Source: Candidatus Methanophagaceae archaeon
Lineage (GTDB): Archaea > Halobacteriota > Syntropharchaeia > Alkanophagales > Methanospirareceae
Length of the DNA stretch: 32,000 nt
Assembly (NCBI GenBank): GCA_003194425.1
Contig: PQXB01000001.1
Coordinates: 520,444-552,443 of the forward strand
Direction of reading: 5' to 3'
In this document: piece by piece, positions 10,715 to 12,808 of the stretch
How the letters are laid out: every line of letters starts with the position of its first letter
How positions within the stretch are numbered: the stretch's first letter is position 1
Made by a program: the position numbers and the translations under genes
Notes under the pieces: generated by a model
What the model saw: the letters and a program-made list of their open reading frames with translations, nothing else
Told to the model about the DNA's origin: nothing
Database searches by the model: none

Positions 10715-12808
10715 ATGAAAGCAGGAGAAGGGAGGTTAGAGGAGGAAGAGGATAACTTGTTTGTGCCGCGGTTGGTTACGACCGAGGAGAACTTCGCACC
10801 CGGGCATCGTGCCTGCATTGGCTGTGGCGAGGCACTCGCGGTTCGGCACGTCTGTAAAGCGTTGGGCAAGAATGTGATAATCGTGAATGCAACGGGCTGC
10901 GTAGAAATCATTTCGTCGCTGCTACCGCAGACCTCGTGGCAGGTAGCATGGATTCACACGCTCTTCGAGAATGTCGGTGCGGTGGTGTCAGGAATAGAGT
11001 CGGCGTACAAAGCGCGGGAGAGGAAAGGAAAACTTGCAGCAGCGGCTGGGGCTGGGGAGGGGAAGGTGAAATTTGTGGGCTTCGCAGGCGACGGCGGGAC
11101 TTCGGACATTGGGCTGCAGGCGTTGTCGGGCGCGATGGAGCGTTTTCATAATTTTTTATATGTCTGCTACGACAACGAAGCTTATATGAATTGCCTGCCC
11201 GCTTCTTCGCGGATAATGACCGAGAGCGGTCTGAAGAGGATTGTAGAAGTGGTGAGGGGGGAACGAGTGTACGCATTTGACCGAAAGAATCACGAGTTGG
11301 TGGTGAAGAGATGCGTGGGCGTGTTCGACAACGGTACGAGGGAGATTTACGAATTGAGAACCTTACATCACCAAATAGAAGCGACGCCGAACCACCCGTT
11401 TCTGGTTTTGAGGCGGAACGGTCGGGGAAGGGAAAATGAGTTGGTCTGGAGGACTTTGGGAGCGGTGAAGCCGGGGGATTTGGTAGTGGTTCTGAAGGAT
11501 TTGGCGGATTTTGGAGAGGGGCCGTCGTATGAGTTTGATCCGATTAGAAGAACGGAGGTCGGCGATTACAAAGTCACGCACTTGAATGAGATAGAACTGC
11601 CGGAGGAGAGCAGTCCGGATTTGATGAAATATCTGGGCATTTACGTCGGCGACGGCTGGACGCGGGTGAGGAGGGGTGAGACTGGCTTTGCACTGCCCGA
11701 GGGGACAGAGGAGAGAAGGACGCTGATTCAACTGCACTCAGATATTTTCGGCGACAGCATAAAAGAGGATGAAATGAATGTTTATGTAAATTCTGTGAAT
11801 CTTGCGAAGTTCATTGACAGCTTGAGTTTTGGCGCGGGTGCGAAGAACAAGACAATTCCTGGATGGGTTTTTACGCTGCCGAAGGCGGAGAAGGAAGCAT
11901 TTGTTGAGGGGTTGCTTCTCTCGGACGGCTACAAAGTCAAGACCAGCAACAGTTTGAGATATGTCTCGGCGAGTGACGAACTGCTCAAGCGATTGAGACT
12001 GTTGTTGCAGACGATGGGTTACCGCGTGGGGAAAATCCATAAGCAACGGCGGGAGAAGGGTTCGCTGTGTGTTTACAGACCGCTCCTGAAAGACACAGAA
12101 TGGGGCTACATCGCCTTTAGCAAGCGGAGTGCGTGGAATACCGACAAATATTTGTCCCAATACAAGTATCAGAATTTTTTGATAGAGAGTGAGCATTTTG
12201 ATATGGAGGAGGTGAAGGAAGTGAGGGTAGTGGGAAGAGAGCCGGTCTTCGATCTGCAGATTGAAGGCGAGCATAATTTCATCGCAGACGGGGTCGTTGT
12301 TCATAACACGGGAATCCAAAGGTCTTCCTCAACGCCCTACGGTGCGTGGACGACGACTGCGCCCGTTGGAAAGAAGAGCATTGGGCAGGCGACTTGGAAG
12401 AAAAATATGCCGGAAATCGCAGTTGCTCACCAAATACCTTACGTGGCGACCGCGTGCCCGTCGTACCCGTTTGACTTGATGGACAAGGTGAAGAGAGGTG
12501 CGGAGACCGAGGGTCCTGCTTACATTCATATTTTGTCCCCCTGCCCGACGGGCTGGCGGTGTCAGCCGAATCTCTCGGTAGAACTGGGTCGGCTGGCGGT
12601 GGAGACCGGCGTGTTCCCGCTTTACGAGGTCGTTAACGGCGAGTACCGGTTGAGCGTTGATTTGCCTTTGTCCGCGTTGAAGCCGGTTCGGGAGTATTTG
12701 AGGCGGCAGGGGCGGTTCAAGCACCTTACCGAAGAGGTCGTCGAGAAAATACAGGAGCGGGTGGAGAAAGAGTATTTGCGGCTGCGGGAGAAGGCAAGGC
12801 AGGGGTAA
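10715..12808 (+). CDS. porB: 2-oxoacid:ferredoxin oxidoreductase, beta (TPP-binding) subunit, interrupted by an intein
   Basis: Exteins: [31 protein letters not shown]...CYDNEAYMN | [17 protein letters not shown]...[11 protein letters not shown]...[14 protein letters not shown]. Joined, they give the conserved PorB motif [14 protein letters not shown]. Confidence 0.9.
   Translation: [697 protein letters not shown]
11192..12307 (+). mobile_element. Class-1 intein with a LAGLIDADG homing-endonuclease domain (372 codons) inside porB
   Basis: The intein starts with Cys (tgc 11192-11194, [13 protein letters not shown]). Block B is EATPNHPF. The LAGLIDADG motifs are [10 protein letters not shown] and [11 protein letters not shown]. 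The C-terminal blocks are [21 protein letters not shown], ending at 12307, with +1 Thr (acg 12308-12310). Confidence 0.9.

Follow-up and report, generated by a model that had tools for sequence, protein, structure and literature searches.

A pyruvate synthase gene interrupted by an intein lies in the 32,000-nucleotide (nt) stretch of DNA from a Candidatus Methanophagaceae archaeon that we analyzed (positions 520,444 to 552,443 of contig PQXB01000001.1, assembly GCA_003194425.1; this whole stretch is called the window, and coordinates are given in its numbering). Directly downstream of porA, which encodes the α subunit of this enzyme—also known as pyruvate:ferredoxin oxidoreductase (PFOR)—the open reading frame (ORF) 10715-12808 on the forward strand encodes a 697-residue precursor of the β subunit PorB, and the two genes are probably cotranscribed (Table 1). 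Residues 160-531 of the precursor are the intein, encoded by nt 11192-12307, that is, 1116 nt or 372 codons that are in frame and free of stops. The intein begins with Cys1 at codon 160 (TGC, 11192-11194), ends with His-Asn at codons 530-531 (12302-12307), and is followed by Thr+1 at codon 532 (ACG, 12308-12310). Splicing in silico yields a 325-residue PorB, composed of a 159-residue N-extein and a 166-residue C-extein. The same protein, without a single difference, is encoded in the Logan assembly of run SRR6664617, which is independent. A previous sequence-only reading of this DNA had proposed a LAGLIDADG intein inserted in the thiamine pyrophosphate (TPP)–binding motif of a 2-oxoacid:ferredoxin oxidoreductase (OFOR) β subunit, and it has stood up well. 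Its boundaries are exact to the base, as seen from the translation of the ORF, and every canonical block that it listed—Cys1, TPNHPF, two LAGLIDADG motifs, the terminal HN and +1 Thr—is present. No splicing-essential residue has been lost, with all residues that are invariant in the family found in the window, and the proposed kind and place of the insert are borne out by Pfam and NCBIfam scores, conserved residues and the alignment across the junction.

Table 1. Coordinates of the porA-porB locus, its intein and the inferred homing site (nt in the window)
Feature	Position	Strand	Basis
porA, α subunit, 424 aa	9437..10711	+	Pfam POR_N 6.8e-68, PFOR_II 5.7e-24; NCBIfam PorA_Arch 467 bits, below the 550 cut-off
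PorB N-extein, 159 aa	10715..11191	+	alignments to 9bt4_C, 5c4i_C, 1b0p_A; residue roles from PMC5020499
GDG of TPP motif, residues 125-127	11087-11095	+	
Predicted Mg2+-ligand Asn154, position -6	11174-11176	+	
Left half of inferred homing site	11162..11191	+	match to L082; codon conservation
Intein, class 1, 372 aa, with embedded LAGLIDADG homing endonuclease (predicted)	11192..12307	+	Pfam, NCBIfam and PDB matches, AlphaFold2, Foldseek, same-site homologues
Block A, Cys1, predicted nucleophile of N-S acyl shift	11192..11194	+	invariant in 53/53 full-length members
Block B, T65-P-N-H68	11384..11395	+	T65, N67, H68 invariant in 53/53
LAGLIDADG motif 1, LGIYVGD154GW, catalytic Asp154	11633..11659	+	G149, G153, G155 invariant; D154 in 46/53
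LAGLIDADG motif 2, VEGLLLSD245GY, catalytic Asp245	11903..11932	+	D245 in 52/53; LAGLIDADG_3 over intein residues 234-290
Blocks F and G (PVFD354LQIEGEH361 ... H371-N372)	12242..12307	+	D354, H361, H371, N372 invariant in 53/53; intein_Cterm over 351-372
PorB C-extein, 166 aa + stop, Thr+1 at 12308-12310	12308..12808	+	Thr+1 and Gly+2 invariant in 79/79 loci
Right half of inferred homing site	12308..12337	+	match to L082; codon conservation
Cys of SPCPTG, putative fourth [4Fe-4S] ligand	motif nt 12536-12553	+	alignment to 1b0p Cys1071

The identity of the host protein, an OFOR β subunit in the earlier reading, can be narrowed to PorB, since PorA is encoded directly upstream and the NCBIfam model for pyruvate synthase subunit PorB (NF008819, cut-off 405) gives the spliced extein 421.6 bits. 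The score against the VorB-type model NF008818 is 366.5 bits, under its cut-off of 405, that against the KorB-type model is below cut-off, and that against the OOR-β model is far below. When the joined exteins are compared with orthologues, they align without a gap at the junction to the solved β subunits of a PFOR (9bt4_C, E 1.2e-86) and of an oxalate oxidoreductase (5c4i_C, 3.8e-82), and they also align to domain VI of the PFOR from Desulfovibrio africanus (1b0p). Excision restores the conserved motif, as had been claimed, with a 14-residue stretch across the junction identical to 9bt4_C. Neither PorC nor PorD turned up among the ORFs that were scanned across the 32-kb window. The order PorA-PorB-(two small ORFs)-FrhB-like is also seen in an intein-less relative (L082, GCA_049642765.1), and this arrangement thus appears to be a lineage trait rather than damage.

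The insertion point lies within active-site sequence. The TPP motif in the window is G125-D-G127 ... N154 (GDG-X26-N), and C34, C37 and C62 of the N-extein together with the Cys of SPCPTG in the C-extein align to Cys812, 815, 840 and 1071 of 1b0p; in our reading of this alignment and its numbering, these four Cys are the putative ligands of the proximal [4Fe-4S] cluster. Counted along the same alignment, the junction Asn(-1)/Thr(+1), i.e., Asn159/Thr, corresponds to Asn996/Thr997 of 1b0p, and the counterpart of Asn(-6) is Thr991 in 1b0p and Asn118b in Sulfolobus OFOR. TPP is buried at the α/β interface, and its Mg2+ is bound by the GDG motif and Asn118b; Asn996 lines the pocket at the methyl group of pyruvate and rotates upon substrate binding; mutation of its equivalent in StOFOR1, Leu123b, alters substrate specificity (PMC5020499). 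The intein is inserted directly after the substrate-pocket Asn159, five residues past the Mg2+-ligand Asn154, and it parts three of the [4Fe-4S] ligands (C34, C37 and C62) from the fourth. Because a 42-kDa insert sits in the substrate-pocket/TPP motif and splits the [4Fe-4S] ligands, we strongly infer that the unspliced precursor would be unable to form the TPP site and that PFOR activity would require splicing. Inteins typically lie in active-site motifs, and this placement is not exceptional.

All the sequence characteristics of a class 1 intein—block A Cys1, block B TxxH, block F Asp/His, block G His-Asn and Thr+1—are found in the insert. It scores 61.1 bits against Pfam Intein_splicing (PF14890; cut-off 35.8, E 1.4e-16), 29.1 bits against LAGLIDADG_3 (PF14528; cut-off 22.5), and above cut-off against both NCBIfam intein_Nterm and intein_Cterm (TIGR01445 and TIGR01443). 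The Pfam scores are far higher than chance would give. In an alignment of the window intein with 52 full-length relatives (n = 53), C1, T65, N67, H68, D354, H361, H371 and N372 are invariant in 53/53, and the window intein retains both catalytic Asp (D154 and D245) along with every motif glycine. In the AlphaFold2 model (pLDDT 88, pTM 0.86, from a 12-sequence alignment), the LAGLIDADG helices span residues 142-154 and 231-244. The top Foldseek ranks are taken by endonuclease-bearing inteins (TliVMA 7qsu, E 5.5e-23, TMq 0.71, then PhoVMA, PI-PkoII and PI-SceI), with mini-inteins and Hedgehog Hint domains matching lower down over the splicing domain, and sequence matches in the PDB include the PI-PkoII, TliVMA and PhoVMA inteins and many mini-inteins. 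Judged by motifs, profiles and predicted fold, the insert is an intact and almost certainly functional class 1 intein with a two-motif LAGLIDADG homing endonuclease.

Comparison with inteins of known structure highlights similarities and differences. The TliVMA/PhoVMA inteins (7qsu, 7qss and 7qst), which are the best structural matches (TMq 0.71-0.74) and match the window intein in sequence at 1e-7 with ~20% identity, have the same architecture of a HINT domain with an inserted LAGLIDADG endonuclease. They too occupy the catalytic motif of an essential enzyme, but the host is a V-ATPase, the +1 residue differs and the target site is unrelated. PI-PkoII (2cw7) and PI-SceI (1vde and 1lws) are bifunctional, with splicing and homing endonuclease activity shown experimentally for those proteins. 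PI-PkoII is the best sequence match to the window intein in the PDB (6.1e-11, over the endonuclease region), and both are retrieved by Foldseek at 1e-18 to 1e-13 with 12-17% identity. However, they are larger than the PorB intein, with extra DNA-recognition regions, and are hosted by a DNA polymerase and a V-ATPase, respectively.

We propose the following sequence of events. The precursor would be translated whole, after which Cys1 would undergo an N-S acyl shift assisted by T65 and H68 of block B, and the hydroxyl of Thr+1 would attack the thioester to give a branched ester. Cyclization of Asn372, aided by H371, H361 and D354, would free the 42-kDa intein, and an O-N shift would ligate Asn159 to Thr, generating the 325-residue PorB. 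The freed intein would be able to cut intein-less porB at the DNA of the insertion site, and recombinational repair would copy the intein into the cut allele. On a longer time scale, this would amount to a cycle of invasion, fixation, decay of the endonuclease to mini-inteins and loss, with repeated transfer between distant hosts, including across two domains of life.

The same intein allele is widespread. A query with the intein alone against 5.8 billion proteins identified 137 protein clusters with a PorB-site intein at E ≤ 1e-5. Context was inspected for the 120 listed of these 137 homologues, and wherever the boundary is visible, it reads [D/N]N[E/Q/G][A/G]YMN/CL...HN/TG[I/V/N]QRS, which is the site occupied in the window. 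A scan of GTDB with one genome per species identified the intein in the genomes of 140 species. Loci were retrieved for 80 of these genomes, all of them metagenome-assembled genomes (MAGs) or single-cell genomes, and in 79 genome loci the intein occupies exactly this YMN/TG site. The hosts of the 80 loci include bacteria (Omnitrophota, Aerophobetes, Patescibacteria/Parcubacteria, Cloacimonadota, Poribacteria and Dependentiae), DPANN archaea (Aenigmatarchaeota, Woesearchaeota, Nanoarchaeota, Micrarchaeota, Iainarchaeota, Altiarchaeales and a complete Forterrea genome) and other archaea (Bathyarchaeia, Hadesarchaea, Heimdallarchaeota and Methanophagales), and five more loci are labeled uncultured Methanosarcinales, a label that is uncertain. 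The closest intein, with 80% identity, is that of Methanophagales isolate AUK217 (L002).

Inteins are known in other metabolic enzymes, such as phosphoenolpyruvate synthase, GlmS and UDP-glucose dehydrogenase of M. jannaschii, MoaA of P. abyssi, and fungal Glt1, so that genes unrelated to replication and repair were already among the known hosts. To our knowledge, none of these hosts is an OFOR and none of these inteins is in a TPP motif; no OFOR allele is known to be listed in InBase. Full-text searches that combined inteins with this host or with ANME-1 revealed no account of a PorB or PFOR intein, and the main text of the intein survey by Novikova et al. (2016; PMC4760082) makes no mention of pyruvate or ferredoxin. 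The sequence-only reading had called this host unusual and had pointed to other hosts of the insertion site as something to look for. The first view stands as regards the literature, but the second point, resolved by the same-site inteins in 137 clusters and 140 species, shows that the allele is common in sequence data. As far as we found, the sequences are public and machine recognized, yet the host gene and site are undescribed; the mechanism is ordinary for inteins, and what is unreported is the host gene and the insertion site.

One mark of mobility is that inteins at this site are better conserved than the enzyme that carries them. When the window is compared with the other loci, the intein (52-65% identity) is more similar than the extein (40-53%) in 77/79, the exceptions being L002 and a partial locus, L058. 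The window and 71 complete loci form 2556 pairs, in which identity averages 61.2% for the intein and 49.7% for the extein, with the intein higher in 96% of all pairs. For the 936 pairs that cross domains, the averages are 60.0% and 48.2%, respectively, and the intein is higher in 99.6%; one of the extreme pairs, Cloacimonadota versus Nanoarchaeia, shares 80% identity in the intein and 45% in the extein. Because inteins are better conserved than the host enzyme, repeated horizontal homing into divergent porB alleles is indicated. The first and second codon positions of the target DNA are near-invariant over ~45 nt in 78 loci, and such a near-fixed target would allow promiscuous homing. A viral vector for the spread across domains was considered and rejected: among the best 80 viral loci in IMG/VR there is no full-length close relative, all being at most 33% identical, except for a partial 465-nt match at 50% (L163).

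Empty sites are abundant among the closest relatives. The 120 best clusters for the spliced extein, with 75-86% identity and 306-322 residues, are all intein-less, and the named sources among them are ANME-1, Methanophagales and 'Methanospirareceae'. Since the nearest exteins are from ANME-1 and intein-less, the window belongs to a Methanophagales archaeon most of whose relatives have an empty site. One such site is that of L082, which is identical at 51/60 nt to the sequence flanking the window intein and whose 60 bp read TGCTGCTTCGATAACGAAGCTTATATGAAT/ACTGGGATACAGAGGTCTTCCTCGACGCCC. The extein of the intein-bearing L002 is 89% identical to that of L082 and 82.5% identical to that of the window, and because it is nearer to an intein-less relative, the intein-bearing alleles do not form a single clade on the host tree. 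Decay is also seen. Twenty mini-inteins of 145-325 residues have differing deletions, which in every case take away endonuclease sequence but leave the splicing blocks. One of them (P0113, 177 residues) begins CLPASS as in the window and lies in a PorB 75% identical to that of the window. Full-length, decayed and empty states therefore coexist within one host clade, which is what a classical homing cycle leaves behind. We thus consider it very probable, from these comparisons, that porB of this Methanophagales (ANME-1) archaeon carries a functional class 1 intein with a homing endonuclease that takes part in an active homing cycle with horizontal transfer. The evidence for mobility is phylogenetic and not compositional.

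Other inteins occur in other hosts and also elsewhere in PorB. HMMER over 1.84 billion cluster representatives returned 5265 matches at E ≤ 1e-3, of which 83 are at E ≤ 1e-30. Identity falls sharply from at least 50% in members of the PorB allele—joined by two divergent TPP-enzyme hosts at 41-42%—to about a third in the others, and the PorB intein is on this ground an allele group of its own. A different host for the same intein lineage was sought and dismissed, as beyond the PorB allele there are only relatives of about a third identity. The nearest of these whose hosts were examined, at 30-36% over 372 residues, are inteins in SufB, an Mrp/NUBPL-type ATPase, a T4-like portal protein and subtilases (P0242, P0255, P0269, P0248 and P0262). 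SufB and Mrp, like PorB, are Fe-S related, but those inteins differ in host and insertion site. Within PorB, two further sites are occupied in some genes: site a, GDGG^[S/T] (GDGG^[S/T]YDIG), in L063, L077 and P0246, and site c, LYV^CYDN, nine residues before YMN^TG, in L010. The YMN^TG intein co-occurs in the same gene with inteins at site a or c, from which it differs, and the PorB genes with a second intein are from some DPANN archaea and one MAG labeled Planctomycetia, a label that is uncertain. In the window, sites a and c are empty, with GDGGTSDIG and YVCYDNE contiguous. As sites a and c and YMN^TG are all used, PorB has an intein hotspot in its TPP motif, comprising at least three sites. 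The long N-exteins of 480-694 residues in L010, L063 and L077 had been candidates for PorA-PorB fusions, an idea that was abandoned because they proved to contain these extra inteins.

Several considerations weigh against the reading of a functional intein in an active homing cycle. Thr+1 is a rarer nucleophile than Cys or Ser, and splicing, endonuclease cleavage and inactivity of the precursor are all inferred from sequence. Taxon labels of MAGs may be wrong; the divergence of the exteins is independent of such labels. Between the window and L002, the intein (80%) and the extein (82.5%) have diverged to a similar extent, which suggests that inheritance may be vertical inside this subclade. 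The intein, with 50.6% GC against 53.7 ± 3.0% over all 1116-nt windows (10th percentile), is about 1 standard deviation under the GC content of the window, which is no sign of recent arrival in the present genome. GC3 is 0.629 in the intein and N-extein alike, and across hosts, the GC content of the intein ranges from 24% to 51%. The earlier reading had noted low G+C at 11741-11800, which is correct, although the count is 19/60 and not 20/60; base composition as a sign of foreign origin was nevertheless discarded, the contrast being too weak. The similar divergence from L002 and the unremarkable GC content would both fit an intein in which splicing is intact and the endonuclease dead, a fixed and immobile passenger kept because its imprecise deletion would destroy the TPP motif. 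Inactivation does occur in the family, since N, Y or E replaces D154 in some members and mini-inteins exist. The window intein, however, retains D154, D245 and every motif glycine, and the intein-less closest relatives offer fresh targets. Furthermore, comparison of the window with L002 gives dN/dS values of 0.053 for the intein, 0.04-0.075 for the exteins and 0.034 for the endonuclease domain, the lowest of any segment and unlike a dead domain, although dS is saturated (1.4-2.8) and these ratios are rough, to be taken qualitatively, which is one more reservation about the homing cycle. The low ratio of its domain speaks for selection still acting on the endonuclease, and we regard a mere passenger as unlikely.

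A different possibility is that the intein has been co-opted as a conditional-splicing switch, so that suitable redox, temperature or cofactor conditions would be needed for the oxygen-labile PFOR to mature. There are precedents, since conditional splicing has been documented for Msm DnaBi1, a sensor of oxidative stress (PMC6195587), and for Pho RadA (PMC5790916). All hosts are anaerobes, conservation is higher in the intein than in its host, and C41 is the sole invariant noncatalytic Cys (53/53, from the family consensus), which would be compatible with a redox- or temperature-gated switch in which splicing through the Cys1 thiol, perhaps modulated by Cys41, takes place only under reducing conditions. 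If true, such a switch would mean that PFOR is assembled only when able to survive and would explain both the strong purifying selection and the conservation of the intein above that of its host across both domains. However, recent horizontal spread explains the high conservation equally well, the sporadic distribution with 120 intein-less nearest relatives speaks against an adaptive role, and C41 lies midway in a long β-hairpin (35-57) of the predicted model; gated maturation thus appears improbable to us. That the insertion does not splice at all, making porB a pseudogene, or that it is an assembly chimera, is hardly credible. Nothing specific favors it apart from the lack of porC and porD among the ORFs scanned, whereas the frame is open over 697 codons with every splicing residue intact, the sequence is under purifying selection, the Logan assembly independently encodes the identical protein, and the same architecture recurs in 140 independent genomes. 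A functional intein in an active homing cycle is therefore the reading we retain.

The intein has a practical consequence for annotation, as porB is systematically miscalled because of it. Some 25 public entries among those listed, mostly from NCBI and including P0003, P0007, P0011-P0013 and P0015, begin MN/CLS at Met-2 of the N-extein, which has been lost from these entries because the gene caller started at Met(-2). The names of those that NCBI has named are 'LAGLIDADG family homing endonuclease', 'hypothetical protein', 'thiamine pyrophosphate-dependent enzyme' and 'polymorphic toxin-type HINT domain-containing protein'. Some members carry the automatic IMG label 'PorB/intein/homing endonuclease'.

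Several other features of the window deserve mention. Downstream of porB is an FrhB/FdhB-like gene (13425-14591) that is conserved in the intein-less L082 (region 4792-9012), and in L002 (region 1223-5790) a 364-residue ORF is found at its position. The CxxC-rich N-terminal segment of the FrhB-like protein has no Pfam ferredoxin match and may bind Fe-S clusters, and this neighbor may be an unusual electron-transfer partner of ANME-1 pyruvate synthase. Between porB and the FrhB-like gene is a gene for a ParE-family toxin (13136-13390, forward strand; Pfam 1.1e-10), whose place in L082 is taken by two small ORFs, unannotated and on the opposite strand. The porB stop codon is closely followed by a short tandem DNA repeat, gcaaggcaggggtaa (12800-12850). 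Low-complexity protein sequence is seen in the C-terminal (EKAEE)n tail of PorA (~10630-10700) and in an insert, GDGGGNGSGDGGG, in an ArsA/Get3-like ATPase (8015-9352, reverse strand; insert at ~8300-8400). A 211-residue ORF (25876-26511, reverse strand) fuses PurS, a subunit of FGAM synthase (Pfam 3.2e-23), to the DNA_binding_1 domain of O6-alkylguanine-DNA alkyltransferase (2.8e-23). In this odd pairing of purine synthesis and DNA repair, an acidic low-complexity linker joins the two parts and the PCHRV active-site motif is intact. At the start of the window, a prokaryotic YEATS-domain protein (pYEATS, 3.2e-16; region 695-1549, forward strand) is followed in region 2232-5260 (forward strand) by a RACo-type corrinoid reductive activator and a fused TPP_enzyme_N/TPP_enzyme_C protein of 424 residues, possibly a ComDE-like sulfopyruvate decarboxylase. 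The YEATS, RACo and TPP-enzyme genes fit a methane- or alkane-metabolizing archaeon.

What this intein means extends from the protein to its hosts. With PorB, the known intein hosts come to include an enzyme of central carbon and redox metabolism, pyruvate synthase or PFOR. In uncultured anaerobes, the allele provides a clear-cut natural case of a homing cycle reaching across the boundary between bacteria and archaea. For protein engineering, it offers a thermophile-derived Thr+1 intein and a predicted new rare-cutting endonuclease. In metabolic reconstructions of genomes with such an interrupted porB, PFOR calls are probably missed. In the ANME-1 strains that carry the intein, splicing would be a precondition for PFOR activity, which turns acetyl-CoA into pyruvate for carbon assimilation.

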